A stretch of 64,000 bases of DNA, from UHGV virus genome UHGV-1430452. One strand, given 5' to 3'. Of this stretch, positions 706 to 24,649 are shown in pieces (the stretch's first letter is position 1; each line of letters begins with the position of its first letter). The position numbers were made by a program, and so were the translations under genes. The notes below the pieces were generated by a model, which saw only the letters and a list, made by a program, of their open reading frames with translations, searched no databases and was not told the DNA's origin. Source of the DNA: a virus.

Positions 706-1205
706 CTATGCTGATCGCAGCACCCATTATCGTAATCGAATTCTTCTCGATCTAATGCGCAGTAATAGCCAGATATGTTATCGCAAGTCTCTTCATCATA
801 ATAGTCTTCAAAATCACAATGAACACACTCCCCGCAGCAATGTTTTTCTCTAATATCTTCAACATTCGCATACTCATCATCTCCGGTTAAACGTAATAAT
901 TCTTTAATCTCATCGTCTGTTAAATCGAGTTCACCAGAGTTAAGTCTACTTCTCAAATATTCTGAAAATACAACATCCGAATTACTTGTATAATCAGAAA
1001 TGATATCACCTAACTTGTCATAAGCATCCGGTCCTTCTCCATATTCCTCAGCACATTTCTTACTATTCGGAATATAGTACATACACTGATCTCCGGAAAC
1101 ATCACAATAGTATCTTCCTTCATCCGGATCAAATTTTGCAGCTTTACAAGACATAGTTTTCTCCTTTCTACAATTAACAAAATTCAAGTCCATACCAAGT
1201 ATCAT
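702..1205 (-). CDS. acidic Cys-rich hypothetical protein
   Basis: 167-aa ORF with multiple CxxC/CC motifs. Confidence 0.45.
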   Translation of the reverse strand: MILGMDLNFVNCRKEKTMSCKAAKFDPDEGRYYCDVSGDQCMYYIPNSKKCAEEYGEGPDAYDKLGDIISDYTSNSDVVFSEYLRSRLNSGELDLTDDEIKELLRLTGDDEYANVEDIREKHCCGECVHCDFEDYYDEETCDNISGYYCALDREEFDYDNGCCDQHR

Positions 1206-3281: not shown

Positions 3282-3632
3282 TCACAAATCCTCATAGCTA
3301 TGAGCAATCAATGCGTAAATACTTTTATCTAAAACAAACGCATTATCGCCATCATTTCCGAAACCGATTACTCTATGATTCTTCAAGTTGTCACCGTGGA
3401 ATTTCGCATCAATACAACTTTCATCTTTGCTAGTCTGCATAACACAAAAAGTGACATAATTATCGTTAGGAAGTTTTATAGATATAGTGTTCATCCAGTC
3501 TTTAGATTTATGGTCCAAATGAGACATATCAACTGTATAGTGATTACATTTGTTGAATGTCGGATAACCTAATTTCTCAGCTTCCTCGATTGAACATTTA
3601 GTAAATATCAATTCTTTTTGTGTTGCTTCCAT
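3282..3632 (-). CDS. hypothetical protein
   Basis: 116-aa ORF. Confidence 0.4.
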   Translation of the reverse strand: MEATQKELIFTKCSIEEAEKLGYPTFNKCNHYTVDMSHLDHKSKDWMNTISIKLPNDNYVTFCVMQTSKDESCIDAKFHGDNLKNHRVIGFGNDGDNAFVLDKSIYALIAHSYEDL

Positions 3633-5601: not shown

Positions 5602-8600
5602 GGCAGCTCTACATCTTCATCATCGAATGGAATTTCCTCAGGAGATCCTTCCGGTATGTTCATGAAGTCTGGTAAATGAGAATCTCTAAAAGGAGGTTCA
5701 TGCCGATCTGAAGCATCCCAAGGCGGAGTACCAACATATGGATCGTCTGATATGAACCACTCAGCGTCTCCGTATTGACCAATAGTTTCAAGAGCATCAT
5801 CCACAAGCTTTCGATAATATGAACGATCAATATTTTCTTCATTTCCCGGAGACATCATTAACTCGGATTCAAGCCAACGGAAACCAGTTGTTCCTGTAGC
5901 TGCATAATATTTACCGTTCTGTTCTCGCATCAATAGTCCTCCACCCTTTCCAGGCTTAACCGGACAAAATTGCCCAACTTTACCTACGAAATGATAGTCA
6001 TGACCTTCAGCTATTAAATCGTTTAATCTTCGACACTCACTTTCGAAAGTTGTGTCCGATAACTTACCTTTCCTGTACTTATCTTCAAGTTTGGATAGTT
6101 CTTTTTCATACTCGGATACATCTGGAAGTTTTTCGTTCATATCCAAATATAAAGCAGATTTTACTGAGAATGCTTCGCACATATCTTTCAACTCAATTGG
6201 TTCTTTACTGAACAGTGTTTTAAATACATACGGAACTGCAAACTGTTTTCCAGTAGCTGTCCATTCTCCGGCATTCTTTCCATCTTTAAACCTAGCCACG
6301 TACACAGCATCATTTACTAAACAGAATTTTTCAAAGTTAGCCTCTGTTTCAAATGTATATCCGTATTCTTTACCGAATTTGGTTACGAAATCAATAATAT
6401 CAGGAGTAGCATCGGGTATCTTTATGGAATCTGTCTTGATATGACAAACAGTAAATCCTCGTTTCTGAACTTCTCTTTTCAATAATGTCATGAAGAGAGC
6501 TCCTCTTTTGGCAACAATGTTATCCTTATTTCTAGGATCTCTAAATTCATTTACGAAGCCAGCTGATGTCAAACCATAAATGGAATTGATAACAATCTTA
6601 AGTGCCTGCGCTAAATCAGCAGCCTGTTCTTCATTTAAGTATGGTTTCAACGCTCCACCTAATAATTGTCCAGCTGTTTCAAAGTCTTTATGCTTAATTG
6701 CAACACGAGCTTTTACAATATCCTCAAACCGTTTTGTATATTCTGGTCCAAATAGACATTCGAATATAATACTGTGAGGATGCTGAGAAGCAATGTCTCC
6801 ATCCCATACATTACCGTAATGCCCAGGTTCAGAGTAAACCCGACCGCCTTCTCCAATGGCTTCGCCTAAATATGTTGATTTACCAAACTCAAAAGTATAG
6901 CCTTTAAAGAATGGAAGAATGCTATAACCTTCTGGAAGCTTTTCGCCAGGAACGTAAGATCGATATAATGGAAGACCCTCAGAATCAAATACTCTGAAAT
7001 CATAATCATCTCCGAATTTAATTCTATATTCATCATAACGATCTGAGCTAACCGGTTCCGCCAAGTATCTATAGTTGAATACATTCTGCGGTTTTTTATT
7101 ATTTCCAAATATAATTCTTTTAGAAAGAGTATTTGTCGTATCATTAACTGTAACGTTTGTAATATCATGTAAGAGTTTTACAAGATCAACCTGAATCTGT
7201 CTAGCAACAAAGTCTGCTTTTCTTGCATTGAATACAGCTTCCGTCGCAATGACATCATTATCGCAATACTCAGCAACCTTTGCCCATAATTCTTCTGGAA
7301 CTGGTTGATCCCAAGGAAGACCAAGCTCTTGATGATGAATACCCAGTTCAATCTCCCATTTCTTTAAACTCTGTTTCACAGTTGACATATCATATACATC
7401 AATGTAACCAAGATTATATGCCTCACCAAACATGCCATTATCACGGCTTCCCTTTGGAGCATTAATAATTCTTTGAGATAACTTATATATTTCCTCATTT
7501 GTGTATCCCATAAGTCTAGCATAAATGATATGTCTGTCGTATTTACGTCCATTAAAATCAACAAGTTTAAACTTTAGAAGATTTTCTATTTCTGCTGGTG
7601 TAGGATTAATTAATCTAACTACTGTTTTTCCTTCTCCAGCAAACTTATAGTTTACCAAAAATAAATTTGGGAATACCTCACAATCATAGAATACAAGATC
7701 GTCAGTATCACCCTCATTACTTGTCTCTGAAGCCTCTTCACTCTTAAACGCCATCTGATTAACTAACTTCAAACACTCATCAGCCTGGTTACTACTACTC
7801 GCCGCCAAAGCAAATACAGCATTTTTCATATCAGACACATCATATCCAATACCACTCTCATAAGCCTCATCCAAAAGTTTCTTAATCATTTGAATACTTG
7901 GAGCTGTGTTACCCATAATTTCTTTATTCAGATGTTTCTTAAGAACGGATCTCAAATATTTCTCATTCTTAATACCATCAAAGTTAATCACATTTTTCAC
8001 CTCTTTCAACGGAAGACCTGAGCTAATTGTACGAATAACAAGATTGACACACTTAGTAAGTTTTCTTCTAAGAGATGTTTTACCGGTAAATACCTTAATC
8101 TCGATATCCTCATCAAATATACGACTTAATTCACTCACATCACCGTTATAAATATAATGAAGATGAATACCTCCACCACTTTTGCTTAACTCAGCATATG
8201 TTGGAGGCCATTTACTAGCTGCTTCAAGATTCTTCTCGAAACATTTATTACCATTCTCGTCCTTAATATCAAAGTCAATAACTACATGATTTTCAGGGAC
8301 CTTGACGTAATGAAGTTTTGATGTGTCAAGTTCTGATAGGGTAGTTGAAACTTCATCCCATGGCTTCGTCGGAGTTTCTTTTGAAGTAGCATATTGAGCT
8401 GGACAATCAGAACATTCTTTATCAAAAATAGACTCCTGTTCTTCAAATATAAGCCAGCTCTCAGTTTTCTCATCTCCAATAGGTTTCTCTGCTTTAACCT
8501 TTTTCTTCCCACCAATAGAGTCTTCGAAAATATCAGTCTTAAAACCGTCGTAATAACTCAGCAGCTTACTTCCATCTTCTTTCTCCACCTTCTCATCAAA

Positions 8601-12028: not shown

Positions 12029-12967
12029 TCAAATCATGTTGAGAATATCCCCATCCACATTGAAATCAAGAAGAATAGTTCTCTCATAACCGTTCACGAA
12101 GTTACGATTTGCCTCGTTGTAAGTGTTATAGATTCCGAAATCTACGAAATTATCACCTACTGGATGTTTCTCGTCATAAATCCATCCAACAATCTGACCT
12201 GCCTGTGTACGCGGGATTCCGAGCATATCATATACTTCATTCAGGAACAGATGACCTTTCGTTTTCAACATGTCATTTGCATAACGCTGCTGATCTTTAA
12301 GGAACATTAGATTGAATTCAGGATCTTTAGTCCATCCTGTACATCCATCATCGAAGAATTTAGCATAATCGCTGTAACTGTCGAGAGTTGCTACATTTGC
12401 TGTTTTCTTAACAGTAGTTTCTGTACCATCTTCATTTACAACAGTCTCTTCGATTTCTTTTGCTTTGATGTTGTACTTCAGTTCTTTATCAAGCTCTTCA
12501 CCAAATCTCTCAATAACACGACCACGATATTCCTTGAAGCCTTTGTCAATAGTTGCATAAGCGGCTGCAAGTGCTAAGTTACGTTTACGAAGAATATGAT
12601 GACCACTAAGAATAGCAGCGATAGAAACTGTTCCAAGGATTACTGCTGGAGCATAAAGTTTTGCTACCTTTACGGCTGTTTGAGTATACATGATAGTTAA
12701 ATCTTTCTTACCATCTTCTTCTGTGTACTCTTTACCTTCTGGAACCATATCTGGATTTTCCATAAATTCATGAATTTTCTCGATTTTTTCTTTTGGCTCA
12801 GCGAGCACCTCATCGAGTTTAGTAGTTGCTTTACATGCCATTACAGCAGAGCCAACTACACCAACAATACCTGCGCCAACCAAGATTTCAGGGCTATGCT
12901 TTTTAAATTTAAAACCTACACGATGGAGGCTTCTAGTTACTGTGTTCATAATTTCTAATTTTGCCAT
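12029..12967 (-). CDS. membrane-anchored protein, paralogue family member A
   Basis: 312 aa; shares the N-terminal block (SPEIL..G.GI.G..S.V.A.KAT.K..E) and the YAPAVILG...RxLALAAAY block with 15042..15869 and 17330..18106. Confidence 0.5.
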   Translation of the reverse strand: MAKLEIMNTVTRSLHRVGFKFKKHSPEILVGAGIVGVVGSAVMACKATTKLDEVLAEPKEKIEKIHEFMENPDMVPEGKEYTEEDGKKDLTIMYTQTAVKVAKLYAPAVILGTVSIAAILSGHHILRKRNLALAAAYATIDKGFKEYRGRVIERFGEELDKELKYNIKAKEIEETVVNEDGTETTVKKTANVATLDSYSDYAKFFDDGCTGWTKDPEFNLMFLKDQQRYANDMLKTKGHLFLNEVYDMLGIPRTQAGQIVGWIYDEKHPVGDNFVDFGIYNTYNEANRNFVNGYERTILLDFNVDGDILNMI

Positions 12968-14594: not shown

Positions 14595-14666
14595 TGTTAC
14601 CTCCTAGAAACAAAAAGAGAAGAGTCCCATAATTGAGACCCGTCTCTTTTTCGAATACTTTAAATG

Positions 14667-14972: not shown

Positions 14973-15009
14973 AGCAAGATCCTCCTTTAAAATAATTTTA
15001 AGTATTTTC

Positions 15010-15036
15010 TTCATAAAGCACTGTGTATTTTTCGCG
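15010..15036 (-). promoter_or_regulatory. conserved early-gene motif copy (promoter-like)
   Basis: ttcataaagcactgtgtatttttcgcg upstream of 14667..14972. Confidence 0.45.
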
Positions 15037-15041
15037 TATGA

Positions 15042-15869
15042 TTAATAGTAGCTATCGAAACCATATTCCGGAGGCATCAGATGATCAATAACAATACACG
15101 GTTCATTATCTTCCGTAATTTGAGCACTATATCTCACATCGATTTTGCCTTTATCGATTCTCCAACCGATGCTATTACCAACTTCGGTATGCTTAAGACC
15201 AATTTCGTCATAGAAATCATTCAGAGAAATATACATCTCGTTACCGTTGATCATTCTCTCATTAAGAGTAAGAACAGCATTTTTAATCTTGTCGATATCC
15301 GATCTGAAATATCTGTCGGAATGACTGTCATAACACAACGTGTTACCTTTACCTGTCATGATAATCTGAGTGTCTGCAACCGGATGTTCTTCAACTTGCT
15401 TCTTAGCGACTTTATCTCTGATGTTATTTTCCTTCTTCTCTCCGATAGTCTCTACCACTTTCTCTCTGTAGTCAGACAGTGCTGTTGTAGATAACTGATA
15501 TGCTGTTGCCAATGCTGCGTTACGTCTTACATGTACGGAATTAGCACCGATAAGACAAGCGACTGACGCAATGCCAGTGATAGCTGCTGGAATATAAGGT
15601 TTCCAAGCTGCTTTTACTGTTTCGACAGGTGTGAGATTTAAAGCGTTTCTTTCGTCTTCTTCTGTGAAAATACCGCCTTCATGAGCTTCTTTCTCTTTAA
15701 ACTTCTTCTCTTCCTCGATTAACTCCATAGCTTTTGGTGTTGCTTTTACTGCAAGCACAACAGTAGATATCATACCTGCGATACCAATGCCAGTAAGAAT
15801 TTCCGGACTGCGTTTTTTCATTACATATTTTGCAGTGTTTAAAAATTTTGTTACATTTGGTTTGTTCAT
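15042..15869 (-). CDS. membrane-anchored protein, paralogue family member B
   Basis: 275 aa; same N-terminal and central blocks as 12029..12967 and 17330..18106. Confidence 0.5.
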   Translation of the reverse strand: MNKPNVTKFLNTAKYVMKKRSPEILTGIGIAGMISTVVLAVKATPKAMELIEEEKKFKEKEAHEGGIFTEEDERNALNLTPVETVKAAWKPYIPAAITGIASVACLIGANSVHVRRNAALATAYQLSTTALSDYREKVVETIGEKKENNIRDKVAKKQVEEHPVADTQIIMTGKGNTLCYDSHSDRYFRSDIDKIKNAVLTLNERMINGNEMYISLNDFYDEIGLKHTEVGNSIGWRIDKGKIDVRYSAQITEDNEPCIVIDHLMPPEYGFDSYY

Positions 15870-15958
15870 TTTTTATCTCCTTTCATGAACAGTTAAATTG
15901 TTTTTACCAAAAATCCCACTCGGGAAAATTTTGATCTTGAAAAAATAGAAATCGAAAA

Positions 15959-16030
15959 GAAACAGTGTAGGACTCGAACCCACAACCTACAGATATAAGT
16001 CTGTTGCTCTACCAATTGAGCTAACTGTTT
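15959..16030 (-). tRNA. tRNA with non-canonical 6-nt anticodon loop (anticodon unresolved; UAU or UUA are the options)
   Basis: Minus-strand fold: 7-bp acceptor AAACAGT/ACTGTTT, D-arm GCTC-AATTGGTA-GAGC, T-arm GTGGG-TTCGAGT-CCTAC; anticodon stem ACAGA/TCTGT encloses only CTTATA. Confidence 0.6.
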
Positions 16031-16080
16031 CTTCTCATAATAGCGCTTGTAAATTTCGCGAATATAGATCTTCAGAAACA

Positions 16081-16106
16081 AAAAAGAAGAACCCCGAAGG
16101 ATTCTC
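16081..16106 (-). terminator. intrinsic terminator
   Basis: Minus-strand GAAUCC-UUCG-GGGUUC hairpin followed by UUCUUUUUUG, between small gene and tRNA. Confidence 0.5.
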
Positions 16107-16277
16107 CTAGACTTTCTTCTGAAGCTCAGAAACTGCTTTCTTCAACTCTTCAAACTCCTTTTCTTTTTTCTGATCTGATAATGCACCTGCTATAGCCATA
16201 ATACCTGTTACTACAACACCTGCATATTTTCCGACAGACTTCAGAAGCGGATTATTGATAATACCTTTGAATTTCAT
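16107..16277 (-). CDS. small membrane peptide (56 aa)
   Basis: Hand-translated MKFKGIINNPLLKSVGKYAGVVVTGIMAIAGALSDQKKEKEFEELKKAVSELQKKV; GGAGA RBS. Confidence 0.4.
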   Translation of the reverse strand: MKFKGIINNPLLKSVGKYAGVVVTGIMAIAGALSDQKKEKEFEELKKAVSELQKKV

Positions 16278-16295
16278 TTTTCTCGTCTCCTTTCT

Positions 16296-16327
16296 TCATT
16301 CCATTAAAGGAAATGTTTTTGTCGCGA
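16296..16327 (-). promoter_or_regulatory. conserved early-gene motif copy (promoter-like)
   Basis: ttcattccattaaaggaaatgtttttgtcgcga. Confidence 0.45.
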
Positions 16328-16364
16328 TACCGGTTTCGCTATATCAAAATATCATCGTTTATCG

Positions 16365-16853
16365 TCACCCGTGTATGGGTAAATCCATTTTGATTTTGTC
16401 AGGATTCATAATGAGGATACTATCGCAGTCCCAGCCATACAGATCCCAATATAACTGATGATCAGCTGATAAATTTAACTCGATGGCATCATAGCCAAGT
16501 TCAATGCATTTCTCGAAATCTATCAGTGTACTTATTGATTTCCATACCGGGTCAGCAATTGTTGGAAGTTCCTTTAATTTTTCTACGGAATCTATAACGA
16601 ATATATTGGCTTCCGGAAGAGTGAATATGAAACTATTTTCTTCAATACATTCACGAAAATTTTCTCTTTCACACCAGTCTTTCCAACCTAATTTGGCATC
16701 TATCGGACTAGCCCAAAGACCTCCTCTAGGTTTAACCCAGCATTGCTCATTTTGAATAGGTTTAAATAAGTTTGGATTAAAAGTTGCATGTCCGTAATGA
16801 ATATAAATCTTGTCTTGCATATTACTATCCTTTCGTTCAAAAACATATGTCAC
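16365..16853 (-). CDS. hypothetical protein
   Basis: 162-aa ORF. Confidence 0.45.
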   Translation of the reverse strand: MTYVFERKDSNMQDKIYIHYGHATFNPNLFKPIQNEQCWVKPRGGLWASPIDAKLGWKDWCERENFRECIEENSFIFTLPEANIFVIDSVEKLKELPTIADPVWKSISTLIDFEKCIELGYDAIELNLSADHQLYWDLYGWDCDSILIMNPDKIKMDLPIHG

Positions 16854-16878
16854 TTAGTAACAAAAAGAAAAGAGGCCC

Positions 16879-17082
16879 CTATTTCAGGACCTCAAATTTC
16901 TCTTTTTTATTTTTCTTGATTTTATTCTCAACGGATTCTTTCCATTGATTCGCTTTAGTTGCCACTGCCTGTCTGACTTCTGGAATAGCAAGTGCCGAAC
17001 CGACAACCGTTACTGCCGGCACAACAATCTGTCCAATCCAAAGTCTTACTTCTCTCATAGCATCAATATTTTTGCGTTTCAT
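16879..17082 (-). CDS. small membrane protein
   Basis: 67 aa with TM helix; AGGAGG RBS. Confidence 0.4.
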   Translation of the reverse strand: MKRKNIDAMREVRLWIGQIVVPAVTVVGSALAIPEVRQAVATKANQWKESVENKIKKNKKEKFEVLK

Positions 17083-17112
17083 AGTTTTATCCTCCTTTAA
17101 AAATATAATCTT

Positions 17113-17140
17113 TTCATTAAAGGCGTTGTTTATTTAGCGA
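17113..17140 (-). promoter_or_regulatory. conserved early-gene motif copy (promoter-like)
   Basis: ttcattaaaggcgttgtttatttagcga. Confidence 0.45.
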
Positions 17141-17316
17141 GTGTAATGGATATGCTCATTGTTTAATTCGTCGAGATGTTTAATAAAATCTAAATATCTT
17201 TTATTTCGTCTATTCTCCACAAAGTTTATAACTAACCAAGCAATCCCTACGATAGGCAAGCCAACGAATACTAATAGAAATAGTAAGCATGTAATCATAG
17301 AAACAAGCGTATTCAT
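17134..17316 (-). CDS. small membrane protein (start moved to ATG with RBS)
   Basis: AAAGGAG RBS before MNTLVSMITCLLFLLVFVGLPIVGIAWLV... Confidence 0.4.
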   Translation of the reverse strand: MNTLVSMITCLLFLLVFVGLPIVGIAWLVINFVENRRNKRYLDFIKHLDELNNEHIHYTR

Positions 17317-17329
17317 AAATCTTCTCCTT

Positions 17330-18106
17330 TCAATACTCTTCGTAATCAATGAACGGCTCTGTGAAATCTACAATATAACATTCAATACCGTCGTCCATTT
17401 CTACTTTTGTATGGTGGAAATATAGCCAACCATCCCAGTACATTTCATACATCTGAGCTGCGGACCAACCCATAAATTCACCGTAATCCTGTCGATCAAT
17501 CTCTAGTAAATCGTAATAATCGTTTAAAGATGCACCACCGGATTGAGATAGCATTTTATTAATCTCATACTCTGCTCTCAATTGAGTTTCTTTCGTCACA
17601 CGGTAATAACGTTTGGAATATTCATCGTAGAATAGTGTTTTGCCATCCTCGTATTCGTCGTCATATTCTTCTTTGTCTTCTTCCTCGTAATGGTCTTTTG
17701 CTACAGCAGCACGAATGAGTTTGTCTCCGTCTTCACCATATAACTTTTTAACTTTGTTTTTGTACTCTTTGTGAGTTTGGTCTAGTAAGGCATAAGCAGA
17801 TGCGATGGCTGCTTGGGAATGTTTGTTTAATAGATTCGCGCCAAATATGCAAGCTAGGGTTCCTGTTCCAATCAATAAGGAAGGAATATATGTTGGTCCT
17901 GCTACTCGAATAGTCTCCCATTTTGTTAATTCATCTCCTTTCTCTTCTTCAGCTAGTTCAATAAGTTCCATTGCTTTCGGAGTAGCTTTAACCGCCATTA
18001 CAGCTGTACCTACCACTCCGGCAGCTCCTAATACTGTTAATATAGTAGAGCTGTTTTTCTTTACGAATCTTTTCGAAACTGTTAGTAAGTCATTCATTTC
18101 CAGCAC
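17330..18106 (-). CDS. membrane-anchored protein, paralogue family member C
   Basis: 258 aa; N-terminal block KKNSSTILTVLGAAGVVGTAVMAVKATPKAMELIE matches members A and B. Confidence 0.5.
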   Translation of the reverse strand: MLEMNDLLTVSKRFVKKNSSTILTVLGAAGVVGTAVMAVKATPKAMELIELAEEEKGDELTKWETIRVAGPTYIPSLLIGTGTLACIFGANLLNKHSQAAIASAYALLDQTHKEYKNKVKKLYGEDGDKLIRAAVAKDHYEEEDKEEYDDEYEDGKTLFYDEYSKRYYRVTKETQLRAEYEINKMLSQSGGASLNDYYDLLEIDRQDYGEFMGWSAAQMYEMYWDGWLYFHHTKVEMDDGIECYIVDFTEPFIDYEEY

Positions 18107-18216
18107 GCTCCTTGGCGATAAATTTGGTAAAAATAAAAAGAGAAAGAAAAGAGTCAGCTTGTTGTGTAAACCAAGTCTAACTCAATTCTTTTTGTCATTA
18201 TCCGAAATAACAATAT

Positions 18217-18246
18217 CCCATAACAGGTGATGTAATTTTCGCGAAT
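18217..18246 (-). promoter_or_regulatory. conserved early-gene motif copy (promoter-like)
   Basis: cccataacaggtgatgtaattttcgcgaat. Confidence 0.45.
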
Positions 18247-18248
18247 CC

Positions 18249-18470
18249 CTACTGCTCAAAAAATAAAACTACATCTACCGGATCTTTGAAGTGCTGCTCC
18301 TCCACTACTTCTTTAAATTCTTCAAATGATTCCGGTTCGTATTCTTGTAAATATAAAATCTGTTCAAGCAATCTTCCGTAAAATCCTTGAGAATTAGATA
18401 GCATTTTTACCACACCAATGACTTGTTCAACATCATAACCGTCTGCTTTCTTTTCCATAGCGTTTGCCAT
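18249..18470 (-). CDS. small acidic protein (start moved to ATG)
   Basis: AAAGGAG RBS 7 nt before the ATG at 18468-18470; the ORF-track start is a GTG upstream. Confidence 0.4.
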   Translation of the reverse strand: MANAMEKKADGYDVEQVIGVVKMLSNSQGFYGRLLEQILYLQEYEPESFEEFKEVVEEQHFKDPVDVVLFFEQ

Positions 18471-18645
18471 TTTGAACACTCCTTTAATTGGTTTTTGATA
18501 AAAATAAAAAGAGAATACAATGACTTCAGGGTCGGCCCAACGAAAACCGTTGCCCGGTGGGTAGCATGTTTTATTACGTTATTACGTGCCGCTACGCCTT
18601 CGTGTCTCACCACTGGATTTCCACCAGTATCTATCCATTGCTTTC

Positions 18646-18675
18646 TCTCATAATAGGTGATGTAATTTTCGCGAA
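18646..18675 (-). promoter_or_regulatory. conserved early-gene motif copy (promoter-like)
   Basis: tctcataataggtgatgtaattttcgcgaa. Confidence 0.5.
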
Positions 18676-18702
18676 TAGAAAAAGAAAATGCCTAGTTTTT
18701 AA

Positions 18703-18966
18703 CTAGACAAATTCTTTAATAATTATTGTTCCACCAACTACATCGATTTTTATTTTATTCATCGCTTTCAACATACTAGCCACTTTTTGCACTGGTAACT
18801 TACTTGTGAAACCATAGAACACCAAGTCGCCCATGGTATATACATGCCCTACTGAATACTTAACTTCAATATCGGCTGTATATTTGCCAAGGCAATCCAT
18901 TGCTCCTAAATTTTTCACAACTTCGTTTTTATTCGCGCATAAAGTAATTTCATATTTAGTAAACAT
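18703..18966 (-). CDS. hypothetical protein
   Basis: 87-aa ORF; AGGAGG RBS. Confidence 0.45.
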   Translation of the reverse strand: MFTKYEITLCANKNEVVKNLGAMDCLGKYTADIEVKYSVGHVYTMGDLVFYGFTSKLPVQKVASMLKAMNKIKIDVVGGTIIIKEFV

Positions 18967-18997
18967 ATAAATTCCTCCTTATTCGATTTCATTGTTT

Positions 18998-19028
18998 TTC
19001 TCATAATAGGTGATGTAATTTTCGCGAA
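18998..19028 (-). promoter_or_regulatory. conserved early-gene motif copy (promoter-like)
   Basis: ttctcataataggtgatgtaattttcgcgaa. Confidence 0.5.
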
Positions 19029-19050
19029 AACAAAAGAGAAAGGGCCCATG

Positions 19051-19191
19051 TTACTGAGCCACTTTCGCTTTCTTATGATTTTTAACTGCTTTCTTAGAAA
19101 CCTCTACTGCTTTATTCACTGCATCACTTGCCAAACTACCGACTACCAATCCGCCAGCAATCTCAATAATGTGTCTAACTAAAACATTCAT
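19051..19191 (-). CDS. small membrane peptide (46 aa)
   Basis: Hand-translated MNVLVRHIIEIAGGLVVGSLASDAVNKAVE...; AGGAGG RBS 8 nt upstream. Confidence 0.4.
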   Translation of the reverse strand: MNVLVRHIIEIAGGLVVGSLASDAVNKAVEVSKKAVKNHKKAKVAQ

Positions 19192-19224
19192 TTTAGATTC
19201 CTCCTGTTAAGCAATTTATTATCT

Positions 19225-19255
19225 TTCCATAATAGGACTTGTAATTTTCGCGAAT
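19225..19255 (-). promoter_or_regulatory. conserved early-gene motif copy (promoter-like)
   Basis: tttccataataggacttgtaattttcgcgaa. Confidence 0.5.
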
Positions 19256-19284
19256 TAAAAGAAAAGACACCGTGTTTCAGGTGC

Positions 19285-19512
19285 CTAATCCTCTGAATCA
19301 ACCATTTGTTCAATTTTCAGTAATACTTTCTGATCAATTTCTCCATCCGCATTGATATGAAATCGTATTTTACCATCCTTCATCTCAGCTTCTATCTCAC
19401 TAATACGGATGTCTGGTTTGACTCCAATATTTTTGTATATAGCTCTAGATATAAGTTTGGCTACCATACCTCTCATAAATCTAGTAGATAATTTAATTTT
19501 CATTTCGTCCAT
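19285..19512 (-). CDS. hypothetical protein
   Basis: 75-aa ORF; AGGAGG RBS. Confidence 0.45.
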   Translation of the reverse strand: MDEMKIKLSTRFMRGMVAKLISRAIYKNIGVKPDIRISEIEAEMKDGKIRFHINADGEIDQKVLLKIEQMVDSED

Positions 19513-19525
19513 AATTACCTCCTCC

Positions 19526-19557
19526 TTCTAGGTTGTTTCCTATAATAGGGGAAGTTT
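19526..19557 (-). promoter_or_regulatory. conserved early-gene motif copy (promoter-like)
   Basis: tttcctataataggggaagtttaagtcgcgaa. Confidence 0.5.
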
Positions 19558-19598
19558 AAGTCGCGAAAACAAAAGAAAGAGCAGTGGGTGACACCGCT

Positions 19599-19706
19599 CT
19601 AACTGTTTCTCAAAAATCGAATGAGAATCCATACAAGCCATAATCCTCCGGTTGCAAATACTAATACAAAGTCGATAAGCAATCCGAATAATCCACGCTT
19701 TTTCAT
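19599..19706 (-). CDS. small hydrophobic peptide (35 aa)
   Basis: Hand-translated MKKRGLFGLLIDFVLVFATGGLWLVWILIRFLRNS; AGGAGAAG RBS. Confidence 0.35.
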   Translation of the reverse strand: MKKRGLFGLLIDFVLVFATGGLWLVWILIRFLRNS

Positions 19707-19731
19707 GATTATCTTCTCCTTTCATTTTCTT

Positions 19732-19758
19732 TTCACAATAGGAGAAGTTTTTATCGCG
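19732..19758 (-). promoter_or_regulatory. conserved early-gene motif copy (promoter-like)
   Basis: ttcacaataggagaagtttttatcgcg. Confidence 0.45.
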
Positions 19759-19809
19759 TGCATTATCAGTTCCTTCAAATACAAAATAAAAGAGACCAAT
19801 CGGCCTCTC

Positions 19810-19959
19810 TTACATGTTTCGTTTAGAAAGTTCTTCTGCTACCTTCTTTGCAATCTTTTCATCCAATAACTTATCTGTACTTTGTTTCCCTGCGAATGTT
19901 AATCCCGCACTAACAATAGCTGTTATAAGCTTTGCAATTCTAATTACTTTTGGTGACAT
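19810..19959 (-). CDS. small membrane peptide (49 aa)
   Basis: Hand-translated MSPKVIRIAKLITAIVSAGLTFAGKQSTDKLLDEKIAKKVAEELSKRNM; AGGAGG RBS. Confidence 0.4.
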   Translation of the reverse strand: MSPKVIRIAKLITAIVSAGLTFAGKQSTDKLLDEKIAKKVAEELSKRNM

Positions 19960-19972
19960 AAATATACCTCCT

Positions 19973-20000
19973 TTCTATAATAGAAGAGGTTTAAATCGCG
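19973..20000 (-). promoter_or_regulatory. conserved early-gene motif copy (promoter-like)
   Basis: ttctataatagaagaggtttaaatcgcg. Confidence 0.45.
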
Positions 20001-20350
20001 CGTCTATCGAAGCAAGTTTCCCATCGTTCTCGCTTAACTGGCTTCATTTTCATAGTCCACATCATTTGTCGGACCGTTACGGTGGGATATAAACCGTTCT
20101 CAGGTTCTCCCGATCTATCCTCGAAGAACTCCAGGAATCTTTCATGTAAATATAAAGTGTCTGTCAGCCACGGATCAATCTCGCCCCACCAGGTATTTTT
20201 CGTCGCTGGATCATATCGCTGCTGAATAACAGCTAGTCCTTTTCGTCCCATTTTGAATAAAGTACATTTACTGTAAACTGGATGATCACATTCATAAGTT
20301 TCTCCGTACATCGATACATAAACTTTTGGCTTTTCGTAGTGATAACGCAT
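19991..20350 (-). CDS. hypothetical protein
   Basis: 119-aa ORF. Confidence 0.45.
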   Translation of the reverse strand: MRYHYEKPKVYVSMYGETYECDHPVYSKCTLFKMGRKGLAVIQQRYDPATKNTWWGEIDPWLTDTLYLHERFLEFFEDRSGEPENGLYPTVTVRQMMWTMKMKPVKRERWETCFDRRAI

Positions 20351-20378
20351 ATTACTATTATCCTTTCTTTAACTTTAG

Positions 20379-20408
20379 TTATATAACTTTTGTTTAAACT
20401 CTCGCGTT
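20379..20408 (-). promoter_or_regulatory. degenerate copy of the early-gene motif
   Basis: Minus-strand AACGCGAGAGTTTAAACAAAAGTTATATAAC keeps the CGCGA, AAACA and TTATAT elements. Confidence 0.3.
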
Positions 20409-20446
20409 AGGAAATATAAAAGAAGAAAAAAAAAGAAAAGACTATG

Positions 20447-20523
20447 GGAATAGCGCGGGATTCGAACCCACGACGTTGAGTTTCCTCTTATTCTTCCATT
20501 AGAACTAACCGTCTTAACTATTC
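20447..20523 (-). tRNA. tRNA-like element (good acceptor and T-arm; no canonical anticodon stem found)
   Basis: Minus-strand GAATAGT/GCTATTC acceptor, T-arm GTGGG-TTCGAAT-CCCGC, D-arm-like AGA-CGGTTAGT-TCT; central 29 nt purine-rich with only a short GAG-GAAA-CTC hairpin. Confidence 0.4.
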
Positions 20524-20570
20524 CAGAGACTTCTTCCGATATATTGCTATACGGGAATTGTTCTCTTCTT

Positions 20571-20600
20571 TTCTATAATAGGAAATGTTTATTTAGCGAA
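20571..20600 (-). promoter_or_regulatory. conserved early-gene motif copy, upstream of the tRNA-like element
   Basis: ttctataataggaaatgtttatttagcgaa, ~45 nt from the 5' end of the tRNA-like element. Confidence 0.45.
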
Positions 20601-20643
20601 AGAAAATAGCCCAGGCGTTTAACCCGAGCTAATTCTCTTAAAC

Positions 20644-21012
20644 TTATTCGTTACCATTGAGTTTCTCAATAGCTTCAACCTTCCTGCTGTCAAACATCGT
20701 AGAATTTACAATACTCATCACAGCTTTGTAATATGTTTTCGGCTGATCCTTCTTGAGCAACTCTATCGCCTGAACTTTACGACTATCAAACATGCTGCTG
20801 TTCATTATCGAAGCTACCGCACTGTCATAATCTGCTGTGCTAAATATATCCGCTAATAAATCAACTTCATATGTGTCCTGTTTTCGTTTCTTTTCACGCA
20901 ATACAACTGCCACAATTGGAATCGCAATACCAATCCCATTTGCTACATATTCTGTGATTTTCCATAAACTCTCTTTTGTTTTCTCGCTAGTTAAAACTTC
21001 TTTGATTTTCAT
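20644..21012 (-). CDS. membrane protein with internal duplicated segment
   Basis: 122 aa; TM helix; SIMNSSMFDSRKVQAIELL and SIVNSTMFDSRKVEAIEKL repeats. Confidence 0.45.
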   Translation of the reverse strand: MKIKEVLTSEKTKESLWKITEYVANGIGIAIPIVAVVLREKKRKQDTYEVDLLADIFSTADYDSAVASIMNSSMFDSRKVQAIELLKKDQPKTYYKAVMSIVNSTMFDSRKVEAIEKLNGNE

Positions 21013-21035
21013 ATCAATAACCTCCTATAAGTTTA

Positions 21036-21066
21036 TTCTCATAACAGGCGTTGTAATAATAGCGAA
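21036..21066 (-). promoter_or_regulatory. conserved early-gene motif copy (promoter-like)
   Basis: ttctcataacaggcgttgtaataatagcgaa. Confidence 0.45.
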
Positions 21067-21112
21067 AAAGAAGAGCCTAAGTCATTTCGACTCAAGCCCT
21101 TCCATTTTGAAA

Positions 21113-21496
21113 TTACTTTTTTGGGAGTAACTTCTGAATGAATCCTCGACCCATTATTGTTGTGATGGTTCCAGTCTCTTCGAATTTGATAGACTTGATT
21201 GTGCCCCAGATAGTAACCGCTGTCGGTATAACAATACCCGCTCCTGTTAAGCAATTCTTAACAACTCGATCTTTTCGTTCATCTTTAAGCTGCTCTGCTC
21301 TTAATTCAGCATCAACATTTTGCTGATCCTTTTTAAGTTCTTGTTCAGCCTTAATTTTCTCAAGTTCGATTGCTCGATCACATAACTTTGTCAGGCCGTC
21401 TACCGTATTTTTGTACTTATCTGTACCTACTTCAAGTTTTCCTAACTCTTCGAATTCGTCCTGAATCTCATCTTTTAATAATGTTTCAATACTCAT
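21113..21496 (-). CDS. membrane protein with coiled-coil N-terminus (start moved to ATG with RBS)
   Basis: AGGAGG before MSIETLL...; C-terminal TM helix. Confidence 0.45.
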   Translation of the reverse strand: MSIETLLKDEIQDEFEELGKLEVGTDKYKNTVDGLTKLCDRAIELEKIKAEQELKKDQQNVDAELRAEQLKDERKDRVVKNCLTGAGIVIPTAVTIWGTIKSIKFEETGTITTIMGRGFIQKLLPKK

Positions 21497-21520
21497 TTTG
21501 AACTCCTCCTTATATTCGTA

Positions 21521-21549
21521 TTTCATAATAGGGAATGTTATTTTTGCGA
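21521..21549 (-). promoter_or_regulatory. conserved early-gene motif copy (promoter-like)
   Basis: tttcataatagggaatgttatttttgcga. Confidence 0.45.
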
Positions 21550-21747
21550 CAGATCTACTCTAAGCATTACGTGTTTATCTTTTCGTAGCTTATATGCCTT
21601 ACCACTATCTATTTCTAAAAATAAATACGGTGCTGAGTCTGGATCTGAGCTGTCTACTTTCAGTGTGCCGATTGGCTTTTTTACTAAGAGTGTCGTTGCC
21701 ACAACTGCACCTATCAGCATACCTACTAATAAAAATAAAAGTTCCAC
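21538..21747 (-). CDS. small membrane protein (GTG start)
   Basis: GGAGG RBS then GTG; ELLFLLVGMLIGAVVATTLLVKK... Confidence 0.35.
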   Translation of the reverse strand: MELLFLLVGMLIGAVVATTLLVKKPIGTLKVDSSDPDSAPYLFLEIDSGKAYKLRKDKHVMLRVDLSQK

Positions 21748-21766
21748 TACGCTACTTCCTCCTTTC

Positions 21767-21789
21767 TTCAATAGAATTGTTTTATCGAA
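21767..21789 (-). promoter_or_regulatory. weak copy of the early-gene motif
   Basis: ttcaatagaattgttttatcgaa. Confidence 0.3.
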
Positions 21790-21907
21790 AACTCCCTCCC
21801 GGGAAATTTTCACTTTAGAATTTTAATATTGTTTCCTGTCACCTATGTACGGAATATCTATTCTAGATTAGAGTTTGTTTTAATCTAGGTTAAAGAAAAA
21901 AGAGAGC

Positions 21908-22144
21908 CTAAGCCCTCTTATCTGTCATAAAACTTGGTAACTGAAGTTCTGGTTTATAAGTCATTAACTCTGCTTCATATAGCCTCATGATAATAGCTAT
22001 CTCATCTTCATGAATACTTTTTATCAACTTAAAGACTTTATCATAATCAACATCTGATTTATTCTTCATTTGACAAATATAATCCACGAGTCTGGTATAC
22101 TTATCATCCGCAGTTCCTATCATTGCCGCAAATTTAACTTCCAT
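21908..22144 (-). CDS. hypothetical protein
   Basis: 78-aa ORF; AGGAGG RBS. Confidence 0.45.
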   Translation of the reverse strand: MEVKFAAMIGTADDKYTRLVDYICQMKNKSDVDYDKVFKLIKSIHEDEIAIIMRLYEAELMTYKPELQLPSFMTDKRA

Positions 22145-22176
22145 AATTTATCCTCCTTAAATTTAAAGTTTTATGT

Positions 22177-22206
22177 TTCTATAAAGTAGTATGTATTTTT
22201 GGCGAA
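22177..22206 (-). promoter_or_regulatory. conserved early-gene motif copy (promoter-like)
   Basis: ttctataaagtagtatgtatttttggcgaa. Confidence 0.45.
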
Positions 22207-22225
22207 AAAGAAAAGAAGAGACCGA

Positions 22226-22426
22226 TTAGGCCTCCTCTTTAAATAACTCAGGGTATTTCTCCATCAGTTCTTTTCTGTCTCGTTCAATGTCTTTTTCTAT
22301 ATGCTCGATTTCTGCTTCCAATTTACCTGTGCTTTTACCTAAACGGTAACCCAGATAAGATCCTACAGCATAAACCAATCCGGCATATAAACCAAAACCT
22401 AAACCAGCTTTTAAATTAGCTTTCAT
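22226..22426 (-). CDS. small glycine-zipper membrane protein
   Basis: 66 aa; AGLGFGLYAGLVYAVGSYLG then a charged helix. Confidence 0.45.
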   Translation of the reverse strand: MKANLKAGLGFGLYAGLVYAVGSYLGYRLGKSTGKLEAEIEHIEKDIERDRKELMEKYPELFKEEA

Positions 22427-22447
22427 GATAGATCACTCCTATAATTT

Positions 22448-22477
22448 ATTCTCATAATAGGCGTTGTTTTAGTCGCG
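22448..22477 (-). promoter_or_regulatory. conserved early-gene motif copy (promoter-like)
   Basis: ttctcataataggcgttgttttagtcgcga. Confidence 0.5.
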
Positions 22478-22657
22478 ATCATCAAACGGTACTTCTATGT
22501 TTTCAATCTCGTCAGAAATAATCTCCCCGTCACCGATAAGTAGTTCTCTTTTGTTTATTTGATTAACGCTAGTTCGATATATACCCTCAGCTACTGCTAG
22601 TCCGATAAATGTACTTACTCCCCAAAGAATTCCTTTGATTAATTTATTAGTATCCAT
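22469..22657 (-). CDS. small membrane protein (start moved to ATG)
   Basis: GAGAGGAAA RBS before MDTNKLIKGILWGVSTFIGLAVAEG... Confidence 0.4.
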   Translation of the reverse strand: MDTNKLIKGILWGVSTFIGLAVAEGIYRTSVNQINKRELLIGDGEIISDEIENIEVPFDDRD

Positions 22658-22737
22658 TTTGAATTTTCCTCTCATGATATATTCTCTATTGGAAATCAAA
22701 AGGAAGAGTATCTGCATAGATACCCGCCTTTTTGTTT

Positions 22738-22953
22738 TTAATTATTGCTTGTGGTCCAACCCATGTTGTTCTGTGTGAATGAGTTGTTAATGCCGTTGAT
22801 AGTTCTTACTCTATCCTCGTACAATGAATTGTCGCTAATGATGCTAACTCCGAATTTCCATTTGAAGTCTGGAATTTCGTTAGCTGCTTTCATAGCTTCA
22901 TCCCATTTCTCAAGGAAGACTTCTATCGCATATCCTCTCTCTACACTATCCAT
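22738..22953 (-). CDS. hypothetical protein
   Basis: 71-aa ORF; GGAGGG RBS. Confidence 0.45.
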   Translation of the reverse strand: MDSVERGYAIEVFLEKWDEAMKAANEIPDFKWKFGVSIISDNSLYEDRVRTINGINNSFTQNNMGWTTSNN

Positions 22954-22987
22954 GTCGTTACCCTCCTTTATAATAATTTTCTATAAA

Positions 22988-23017
22988 GGAGCGTGTAATT
23001 TTCGCGAATATCTAATC
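22988..23017 (-). promoter_or_regulatory. conserved early-gene motif copy (promoter-like)
   Basis: ttctataaaggagcgtgtaattttcgcgaa. Confidence 0.5.
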
Positions 23018-23056
23018 CCGTGCATTAATCAACTTCAGATTCTCACTTCGTTCTAA

Positions 23057-24052: not shown

Positions 24053-24649
24053 ATGACAATAGGACAAAAAATAAAAGAATTACGCAATCAACTTAATATG
24101 TCGGTGGATGATCTTGCTGTGAAACTGGGTAAGAACCGTGCGACTATCTACCGCTATGAACGAGGAGATATCGAGAACCTCCCTCTCGATGTACTAGAAC
24201 CATTAGCAAATGCTCTTGAGACCACACCTGGTTATTTAATGGGATGGGAAGAAACTACGAAAAAGAAAGAGCCTTCAATTATCGATGAAGTTACCATGGG
24301 TGACGTTTTTAAAGCGTTACGTCTAGGAAGTAATTTATCGATAGAGGAATTTTCGCATGAGATTGGATTATCTGCCCAAGACATAAGCAATTATGAAGCA
24401 GGAAAGACTCCTATACCTGTAAATATAATTAATCTTGTTGCTGATTTCTTTGGCATATCAATAGCGGAAATAGTTAAGGCACACAAAAACAGCGAAAATA
24501 GAACGCCTTCTGGTTTCGAAATGAAAAAGGAACGATTTGAACGTTTTAAAGTTTGGAATAAAGAGTTTGGACGAATACATTTTACTGATGAAGAAATCAA
24601 TAAAATAATGGAATATACAAGGTTCTTACTTAGCCAAAGAAGACAGTAA
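24053..24649 (+). CDS. XRE-family repressor with two tandem HTH domains
   Basis: IKELRNQLNMSVDDLAVKLGKNRATIYRYERG and FKALRLGSNLSIEEFSHEIGLSAQDISNYEAG. Confidence 0.8.
   Translation: MTIGQKIKELRNQLNMSVDDLAVKLGKNRATIYRYERGDIENLPLDVLEPLANALETTPGYLMGWEETTKKKEPSIIDEVTMGDVFKALRLGSNLSIEEFSHEIGLSAQDISNYEAGKTPIPVNIINLVADFFGISIAEIVKAHKNSENRTPSGFEMKKERFERFKVWNKEFGRIHFTDEEINKIMEYTRFLLSQRRQ

Follow-up and report, generated by a model that had tools for sequence, protein, structure and literature searches.

A conserved, anticodon-less tRNA-like small RNA gene in the early region of a gut phage

The window analyzed here, the complete 64,000-nt stretch of virus genome UHGV-1430452, carries a transfer RNA (tRNA)-like element on its minus strand (20524..20446, 79 nt, GGAATAGTTAAGACGGTTAGTTCTAATGGAAGAATAAGAGGAAACTCAACGTCGTGGGTTCGAATCCCGCGCTATTCCC). 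Comparative analysis showed this element to be a conserved, structured RNA gene with signals of its own and a predicted fold that is unable to decode. We interpret it, at about even confidence, as a stand-alone, early phage small RNA of ~80 nt that evolved from a tRNA-like gene family of the phage, which does not decode and most likely acts as a decoy with the shape of a tRNA. A preliminary description based on a hand fold had noted the tRNA-like ends and left three options, a degenerate tRNA, a tRNA-derived regulatory RNA or a tRNA that folds unusually. Taken alone, the acceptor and T-arm signature is suggestive, not decisive: after dinucleotide shuffling, a 7-bp acceptor plus T-arm turned up 0.28 times per window, and 51 of 200 shuffles had one or more. 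The decisive evidence is conservation and covariation across nine homologs.

The fold is built from an 8-bp acceptor stem, a 4-bp helix (helix X) whose 3' strand abuts the T-stem and which encloses two hairpins, and a T-arm (Table 1). The T-arm GTGGG-TTCGAAT-CCCGC is exactly as first described, and the acceptor helix GGAATAG/CTATTCC is perfect, but its length is 8 bp and not the 7 bp originally given, as a U.G pair lengthens it. The central ~29 nt are not structureless as had been thought. They contain a 5-bp GUUCU/AGAAU hairpin, which is a displaced D-arm, and a 3-bp mini-hairpin; the hand fold had missed both this shifted centre and the anticodon-arm stump of 3-4 bp. It was correct that a 5-bp anticodon helix is missing: the tRNA register has none with a 7-nt loop, and no 7-nt loop carrying U33 was found anywhere in the element. 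The gap between acceptor and D-arm is 11 nt (UAA, the helix X strand GACG and GUUA) compared with 2 nt (U8, N9) in canonical tRNA. Retained parts of the tRNA upper body are the acceptor/T helix and the D- and T-loops. No open reading frame (ORF) of at least 20 aa was identified across the element, and independent gene callers kept the interval as non-coding.

The 119-aa gene downstream of the element was used as bait and retrieved 80 related phage loci, among which only L001 carries the element; an exact 25-mer scan of viral contigs gave no match, as L001 differs at one position (G/A). IMG/VR, metagenomes and GTDB genomes were scanned with DNA patterns anchored on the acceptor plus T-loop, on AGACGGTTAGTTC, on GGAAGARTAAGAG...CTCAACGTC, on the D-arm and on the leader hairpin alone. 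Nine distinct variants were obtained from human-gut samples and one water-buffalo rectum assembly: the window copy (the same as L088), L092, L084 (the same as L001 and L089), L086, L087, L091, L093, L094 and L096. Loci L081-L083, L085, L090 and L095 from the pattern scans were dropped as unrelated tRNAs or sequences. In divergent relatives the element was 89-91% identical to that of the window, compared with 64-75% for shared coding DNA, and it was the best-conserved stretch of their loci. A covariance model (R1) was built from seven sequences and run against ~0.7 Mb of related DNA; it scored 98-109 bits on the nine homologs and at most 37 bits on every other tRNA or tRNA-like gene, a gap that marks a discrete RNA family. 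L094 and L096, which were found through the leader hairpin alone, still fitted the body model at 98-102 bits. Gene order around the element varied, with the 119-aa gene lying upstream in L093 and a homolog of window ORF 18249-18479 following the element in L087 and L091. As the neighbouring genes differ between phages, the element moves as a cassette of its own.

Analysis of the nine sequences revealed standard pairs in 98.7% of alignment cells and compensatory changes at seven pairs (one in the acceptor, one in helix X, two in the D-stem, which is the stem of the first hairpin, and three in the T-stem). None of 500 shuffles equalled the alignment in paired fraction, in count of compensatory pairs or in covariation score, although such shuffle counts are not probabilities, and pairing fell to 35-55% in slid controls with partners moved by 1-3 columns. 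RNAalifold independently returned the same non-cloverleaf fold from the alignment. The minimum free energy fold of the single sequence had a z of -2.9, with 2 of 200 shuffles folding equally well. Helix by helix, the 8 acceptor pairs were paired in 95.8% of cells, including a change of the terminal G-C to A-U in L091; helix X was 100% paired, and in L093 a C-G pair of it has become U-A, a clean compensatory change; the two compensatory D-stem pairs were in L094 and L096; and the T-stem was 100% paired. Read from the opposite strand, several G.U pairs that are invariant or frequent would become C.A mismatches, which identifies the minus strand as the functional RNA.

The anticodon-arm loop (GAAA, AAAA, GUAAAA, GUAAUA, UUAAAA or GUUA) was the sole freely varying part of the element, and its stem gained a fourth G-C pair in L087, L094 and L096. 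The D-arm, T-arm and helix X were all conserved. This pattern of a conserved body and a free arm tip fits selection on the body and not on a payload at the tip. Once the centre is assigned to the D-arm and helix X, no conserved single-stranded stretch longer than 6 nt is left.

We also examined the element with standard tRNA predictors. ARAGORN at default settings made no call at the element or in any homolog, and at relaxed settings it returned only a poor fold with a 6-nt "anticodon loop". At the gathering threshold Rfam gave no hit on the element or at eight homolog loci, and found only the other tRNA of the window (16031..15958). In a permissive Rfam scan the best tRNA-clan match of the element was tRNA-Sec (19.2 bits versus a gathering score of 47), and the best tRNA score among the homologs was 25.3 bits, in L093, versus a threshold of 29. 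A standard cloverleaf from a predictor had been named as the result that would overturn the initial observation; none was produced, and the observation stands. Measured against the definition of a tRNA, the element has the acceptor (7 bp with an unpaired discriminator) plus an extra pair of the -1:73 type, and it has the T-arm (5-bp stem, 7-nt UUCRANY loop, G53-C61). The anticodon arm, defined by a 5-bp stem, 7-nt loop, U33 and anticodon, is replaced by a stem of 3-4 bp with variable loops of 4-6 nt. This and the sub-threshold scores place the element outside tRNA as defined by Rfam or the predictors; the D-arm is present and co-varies, at a distance from the acceptor that departs from the usual 2-nt connector. 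The generic hallmarks of a structured noncoding RNA, conservation across lineages with compensatory changes and transcription signals of its own, were both found. The option of "a tRNA that folds unusually" is supported, the fold being conserved and not a cloverleaf.

The motif copy reported upstream of the element is real and comprises TTCGCT (20600..20595) and TATTAT (20580..20575), the latter a -10 box that ends 50 nt upstream of the element. It belongs to a ~30-nt promoter-like motif, TTCGCGAA-N13-TATTAT followed by purine-rich sequence, that lies 5' of most genes of the early region. At least 11 copies were present in this region (repeat families D1/D2, 11 copies each), and the exact motif core occurred 6 times in the window versus 0.18 expected. 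The motif was found upstream of the element in eight of the nine homologs. Between promoter and body lies a leader hairpin with the consensus YUCC-C-GUAY...RUAU-C-GGAR and two compensatory pairs, which in ~665 kb of related DNA occurred only 8-9 nt upstream of this element. The hairpin is absent in L091, where another tRNA-like unit stands instead, 13 nt upstream; this replacement speaks for the tRNA-like body as the mature functional species, freed by tRNA-type processing. The L091 unit (~819-930, minus strand, with ...GGUGGUUCGAGUCCACCCGGCUCGC) is of a further tRNA-like kind and forms a two-unit cluster with the element; the same kind recurs at L074 2107-2172.

Table 1. Features of the tRNA-like element and its transcription unit in the window
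Feature	Coordinates	Strand	Remarks
Hairpin terminator of the upstream 122-aa gene, TAGCTCGGGTTAAACGCCTGGGCTA then T-run	20607..20631	-	Terminator scan; 5' boundary of the unit
Early-promoter motif copy: TTCGCT (TTCGCGAA in most copies), 14-nt spacer, TATTAT	20575..20600	-	D1/D2 repeats
5' leader, ~44 nt, predicted start ~7 nt past the -10 box	20525..20568	-	Promoter geometry
Leader hairpin UUCC-C-GUAUA-GCAA-UAUAU-C-GGAA, invariant C.C mismatch	20534..20557	-	100% of cells paired
tRNA-like small RNA body	20446..20524	-	Discriminator C at 20446 included; model R1 and structure test
Acceptor stem, 5' strand GGAATAGT	20517..20524	-	Pairs with 20454..20447
Helix X, 5' strand GACG	20510..20513	-	Within the inner, duplicated former acceptor strand AGACGGT; pairs with CGUC 20475..20472
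D-arm GUUC(U)-AAUGGA-(A)GAAU, G18-G19 in loop	20490..20505	-	Displaced 9-10 nt from its usual place
Truncated anticodon arm: 3-bp stem GAG/CUC, GAAA cap, anticodon-less	20478..20487	-	Stem invariant
Helix X, 3' strand CGUC	20472..20475	-	Former variable loop, abuts T-stem; pair 14:53 compensatory
T-arm GUGGG-UUCGAAU-CCCGC, canonical T-loop	20455..20471	-	100% paired
Acceptor stem, 3' strand GCTATTCC	20447..20454	-	CCA not encoded
U-run TTTTCTTTTTTTTTCTTCTTTT, likely end of the transcription unit	20418..20439	-	T-run after the element in all homologs

The origin of the architecture was traced through related genes of the same phages. A permissive run of the Rfam tRNA model aligned the L093 copy with a 10-nt shift in register, and the same shift came out of pairwise alignments to sibling tRNAs. 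In this register AGACGGU corresponds to the acceptor strand AAACAGU of the siblings, and UA-GUUC-UAAYGGAA-GAAU-A to their U8-A9, the two D-stem strands with the G18-G19-bearing D-loop between them, and A26, where Y takes position 17. A hairpin of 3-4 bp, the second one, occupies the position of the anticodon arm and ACGUC that of the variable loop. It is with the outer strand GGAAUAGU that the 3' end pairs, and this strand resembles the acceptor AGAAUAGA of a tRNA-Thr(CGU) in L039. On these alignments the element reads as a tRNA with its 5' acceptor strand present twice in tandem (GGAAUAGUUA followed by AGACGGUUA), which could have come from duplication or from recombination between two sibling genes; the inner copy now pairs with the variable loop and makes helix X. 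The suggestion of a tRNA-derived RNA is borne out in that the element stems from the tRNA-like gene family which the phage itself carries; the attribute "regulatory" is unproven. Two other readings of the centre were rejected. A cloverleaf in the inner register, with AGACGGU as the acceptor, was 73% paired, with two positions unpaired in 8-9 of the nine sequences and zero compensatory changes. A novel payload of two hairpins with possible Hfq (ARN)n or CsrA GGA sites was set aside because the alignments show a D-arm and an anticodon-arm stump, and also because the loop of the second hairpin varies freely.

The sibling genes share a scaffold of G-1 plus AAACAGU...ACUGUUU plus C73 with canonical D and T arms, and are promoter-driven. 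In common with the element they have the promoter motif, a position in the minus-strand early region, the extra -1:73 pair, the T-arm and a matching D-arm (UA-GYUC-xAAUGGxA-GARC-A). Unlike the element, they are cloverleaves, are leaderless (-10 box 5-8 nt before the first base) and score at most 37 bits on R1; conversely, the duplicated 5' strand, helix X, the anticodon-arm stump and the leader hairpin belong to the element. Two siblings have canonical Thr anticodons (UGU, CGU) and most have 6-nt anticodon loops (AUUUCC, AUUUCU, GCUUUU, UUAAUA and others); others carry an 8-bp stem closed by a GAAA or GAUA tetraloop, a 7-bp stem topped by a 15-nt loop, or inserts, one such form being 93 nt long. 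Several escape ARAGORN. This variability indicates a lineage that conserves the tRNA body while letting the anticodon go. Sibling units were seen in L005, L014, L015, L022, L024, L026-L039, L043, L046-L068, L075, L077 and further loci, examples being L029 3705-3776, L059 3861-3936, L027 2061-2138 and 3390-3476, and L075 3863-3955.

The window's own sibling (15958-16031, minus strand) is its only tool-called tRNA, with 62 bits in Rfam and a 6-nt loop, CUUAUA, on a perfect 5-bp stem; ARAGORN labels it 'tRNA-??? anticodon (ta)', a two-base anticodon. It has the extra G-1:C73 pair, and a DUF6353 gene lies 89 nt downstream. Its -10 box is positioned 5-6 nt before the first base, so that its primary transcript is probably leaderless. 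All 43 ARAGORN-called tRNA-like units in the relatives have a DUF6353 gene downstream on the same strand, in 13 cases within 100 nt; so short a gap leaves no room for a separate promoter and suggests modules of a tRNA-like unit plus DUF6353. Three DUF6353 paralogs, predicted membrane proteins of phrog_2152, are encoded on the minus strand of the window (12029-12967, 15042-15869 and 17330-18106). Another uncalled tRNA-like unit was seen in L093 (~6085-6165, plus strand), directly after the homolog of the element and a further promoter motif. Its acceptor helix has 9-12 bp (GAGAGAAUGAUA/UAUCAUUCUCUU), and it also shows a D-like hairpin, a hairpin of 4-6 bp and a T-arm; a DUF6353 gene comes next.

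In tRNA, the acceptor/T-arm half is what RNase P, RNase Z and the CCA-adding enzyme recognize, and this half is intact in the element. Firmicute RNase Z processes CCA-less precursors with U-rich trailers. The primary transcript would be handled as a CCA-less tRNA precursor, with RNase P removing the leader and RNase Z cutting after the discriminator and before the U-rich trailer, followed by addition of CCA. The mature RNA would then act in trans through its tRNA shape, occupying a host or phage protein that reads the body and not the anticodon. Protein recognition of tRNA shape is the best supported mode of action, given a body under selection, no long conserved single-stranded stretch and no antisense target in the window. 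The most likely role would be that of a decoy or competitor for a tRNA-targeting host factor in early infection, a hypothesis favoured by predicted early expression among likely host-takeover genes and by known tRNA-targeting defences; such defences and phage tRNA counter-measures are documented (PMC10264068, PMC11555353, PMC13096335).

Several points weigh against this interpretation. The transcript, its ends, its processing and its CCA addition are all ones that we infer from sequence, and protein annotation found no tRNA-related enzyme encoded in the window. The sample is small, nine sequences of which some are closely related, and the search patterns fixed parts of the sequence, an effect mitigated by the use of four different anchors. 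The conserved sequence of the leader-hairpin stem hints at a role beyond removal by RNase P. T-stem variants match the T-arms of siblings, and gene conversion could lie behind some of the changes. Helix X is supported by a single compensatory event and, as modelled, pushes the D-arm away from its usual place, so that the elbow between D-loop and T-loop may fail to form. Finally, the L096 homolog (3371-3451, minus strand) has the T-loop UUAGAAU, with C56 changed to A. This substitution would break the G19-C56 elbow pair, and the D-loop carries no matching change; the contact between D-loop and T-loop may therefore be non-essential in this RNA.

We considered it unlikely that the element works in cis, as a tRNA-like processing, termination or stabilizing element for neighbouring early mRNAs whose excised RNA has no role. 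Plant-mitochondrial t-elements are an established precedent for such a function (PMC1920247), a U-run follows every copy, the unit lies ~70 nt upstream of the 119-aa gene in the window and in L084, and in 13 of 43 cases a sibling precedes a DUF6353 gene by 10-90 nt, with no space for another promoter. However, a promoter motif directly follows the U-run in six homologs (L087, L091, L092, L093, L094 and L096), which gives the downstream genes a promoter of their own. The genes next to the element also change from phage to phage, and a cleavage signal needs no conserved D-arm, helix X or dedicated leader hairpin.

Rather less probable is a charged, non-translating carrier, aminoacylated through its acceptor end, for example by histidyl-tRNA synthetase (HisRS) via G-1:C73, that would donate, sequester or signal with its amino acid off the ribosome. 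The first pair of the 8-bp stem corresponds to the siblings' -1:73 pair, the canonical siblings combine G-1:C73 with Thr anticodons, and E. coli HisRS charges irregular G-1 tRNAs with Thr anticodons that are unused in translation (PMC5389517). Yet the terminal pair is G:C in only five of the nine homologs and is otherwise G.U (two), A-U (one) or a G/A mismatch (one). The element also has neither G3:U70 nor a long variable arm, making AlaRS, SerRS and LeuRS routes unlikely; CCA is not encoded, and no transferase or synthetase gene was found in the window.

Decay of a tRNA into a pseudogene that lost its anticodon arm and persists by hitch-hiking, the sense in which "degenerate tRNA" had been offered, is largely refuted and in our view very improbable. 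All tRNA detectors fail on the element, its anticodon arm is truncated and sibling genes likewise show degenerate anticodon loops. Against decay, the element is the most conserved segment in divergent relatives and has been relocated as an intact cassette. Compensatory changes were found in every variable helix, and the well-paired fold includes helix X, which is unknown in any tRNA. The signals have also been retained, namely the promoter motif in all but one copy, the leader hairpin in all but L091 and the U-run throughout.

The chance of an antisense regulator matured by tRNA enzymes is slight. The CI RNA of satellite phage P4, a phage regulatory RNA processed by RNase P, is the precedent, and the centre of the element is strongly conserved in sequence. 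This conserved centre is however structural, being the D-arm and helix X, and offers no seed region; the complement of GGAAGAATAAGAGG had 2 matches in the window, including the element itself, versus 0.85 expected, which is chance level.

A decoding tRNA of exotic fold, reading codons through the AAYGGA loop or the mini-hairpin loop, is effectively refuted on anatomy: although canonical Thr(UGU/CGU) tRNAs occur among the siblings and one loop position varies U/C in a wobble-like manner, there is no U33-bearing 7-nt loop, AAYGGA falls on the D-loop in the alignments (Y being position 17), the stump that stands in for the anticodon arm has loops of unrelated sequence on its short stem, and the Rfam and ARAGORN scores are below threshold. 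Two further candidates were rejected. A mini-ORF ATG-GAA-GAA-TAA, as in a mini-tmRNA (transfer-messenger RNA), is contradicted by ACG in place of ATG in L084 and L092 and by the absence of G3:U70. An attP or integration remnant is unlikely given a serine recombinase 4 kb away, the presence of both acceptor strands and RNA-type covariation with G.U pairs.

The favoured interpretation, a tRNA-shaped decoy, bears on how phage tRNA genes are viewed. These genes are usually explained by codon supply or, lately, by replacement of host tRNAs cut by defence nucleases; the element and its siblings separate "tRNA shape" from "decoding" as the selected trait. If the decoy or competitor role is true, it would represent RNA-level counter-defence in gut phages of Gram-positive hosts. 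We tentatively raise the possibility, itself somewhat doubtful, that the element and its tetraloop-capped and 6-nt-loop siblings together form an undescribed class of promoter-driven, anticodon-less tRNA mimics, serving as RNA counter-defence decoys for tRNA-targeting nucleases or toxins of Gram-positive gut bacteria. Such a class would be analogous in logic to the RNA anti-CRISPRs that mimic CRISPR RNA repeats. In the searchable literature, queried for tRNA mimics and decoys of phages, for 6-nt anticodon loops and for T4 stable RNAs, no description was found of this RNA, of its architecture or of anticodon-less tRNA mimics in phages. As none of the nine copies was annotated by ARAGORN or Rfam, phage annotation pipelines miss the class; model R1 finds the nine copies cleanly. 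The fold also shows, in a natural case, how a 9-10-nt duplication rebuilds a tRNA core, a point of relevance for tRNA engineering.

The window represents a temperate tailed phage or prophage of 38% G+C that encodes, by protein annotation, a large terminase, portal, head protease, tail proteins and a primase-polymerase. Its endolysin has GH25, CHAP and CW_7 domains, a combination that indicates a Gram-positive host. A divergent module of helix-turn-helix (HTH) repressor and serine integrase lies at ~24.0-26.3 kb, and the early region of small genes of unknown function runs leftward on the minus strand from ~23.9 to 13 kb. The closest database relatives are uncultured human-faecal phages. An exact-protein look-up of the window proteins gave matches in gut metagenome contigs only, and megablast and blastn searches of the locus against GenBank phages gave no DNA match. 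L093 (JAFZDU010000001.1), a 70.9-kb contig labelled as a Bacteroidales metagenome-assembled genome, shares the early region of the window phage; given the Gram-positive-type endolysin of the latter, it is probably a mis-binned phage contig.

Copies of the promoter-like motif were observed across ~15000-23020 of the window (for example 18642-18682, 18995-19035, 19221-19261 and 22446-22486). Each is laid out as the palindromic box, a 13-14-nt spacer, TATTAT and a purine-rich start, and the spacing from box to TATTAT is shorter than a standard -35/-10 promoter allows. The palindrome could serve the HTH repressor (24053-24649) as an operator, or a phage-specific factor could bind there. Repeat family D4 (14605-14637, 16855-16887, 18134-18166 and 20423-20455), with plus-strand runs of the AAAAAGAGAAGAG type, corresponds to pyrimidine-rich tails that close early transcription units on the minus strand. 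As leaders begin purine-rich, the leader and trailer of one unit are often complementary.

Comparison with known systems identified partial likenesses. The element resembles tmRNA in its acceptor and T-arm, in a helix whose 3' strand abuts the T-stem and replaces the core, and in the lack of anticodon decoding; it differs in its 79 nt versus ~360, in having no tag frame and in its full D-arm. Position 3:70 is A-U in all nine homologs and not the alanine-identity G3:U70 of tmRNA, and an ARAGORN search of the window found no tmRNA. With tRNA-Sec (RF01852) the element shares the 8/5 branch, without the UCA anticodon loop or long variable arm. YrlA has a closed acceptor end and a Ro-binding stem formed from its termini, whereas the termini of the element lie at the acceptor stem; Rfam gave no YrlA match to the element even at E <= 10.

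B. cereus tRNA-Other, from a Gram-positive bacterium, is a tRNA-derived small RNA (a pseudo-tRNA) that does not decode and acts outside translation; it is chromosomal and has a cloverleaf that includes an anticodon-like arm. It has no sequence relation to the element and lacks a leader hairpin and helix X. MALAT1 mascRNA is a tRNA-shaped by-product of a longer transcript recognized by RNase P and RNase Z. Both mascRNA and t-elements (PMC1920247) resemble the element in their tRNA shape, their defective or short anticodon arm and their recognition by these two enzymes; they are however embedded in longer transcripts as end-forming signals, whereas the element is a self-contained unit from promoter to U-run. 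Irregular 'E-loop' and 'G-1' tRNAs and allo-tRNAs, with an extra loop between acceptor and D-stem or a G-1 with a Thr anticodon, are charged but unused in translation in the case of the E-loop/G-1 types, some of which occur in phages (Mukai et al. 2016, PMC5389517); the same work mentions Bacillus cereus tRNA-Other. The element is like the E-loop type in its additional segment between acceptor and D-stem. E-loop and allo-tRNAs keep their anticodon arm and have 8/4 or 9/3 acceptor/T branches, compared with the 8/5 branch (13 bp) of the anticodon-less element, which also lacks the long variable arm of allo-tRNAs and uses its extra segment to form a helix with the variable loop. By analogy, the element would work most like these non-decoding tRNA derivatives, namely tRNA-Other, the E-loop/G-1 tRNAs, mascRNA and the t-elements.

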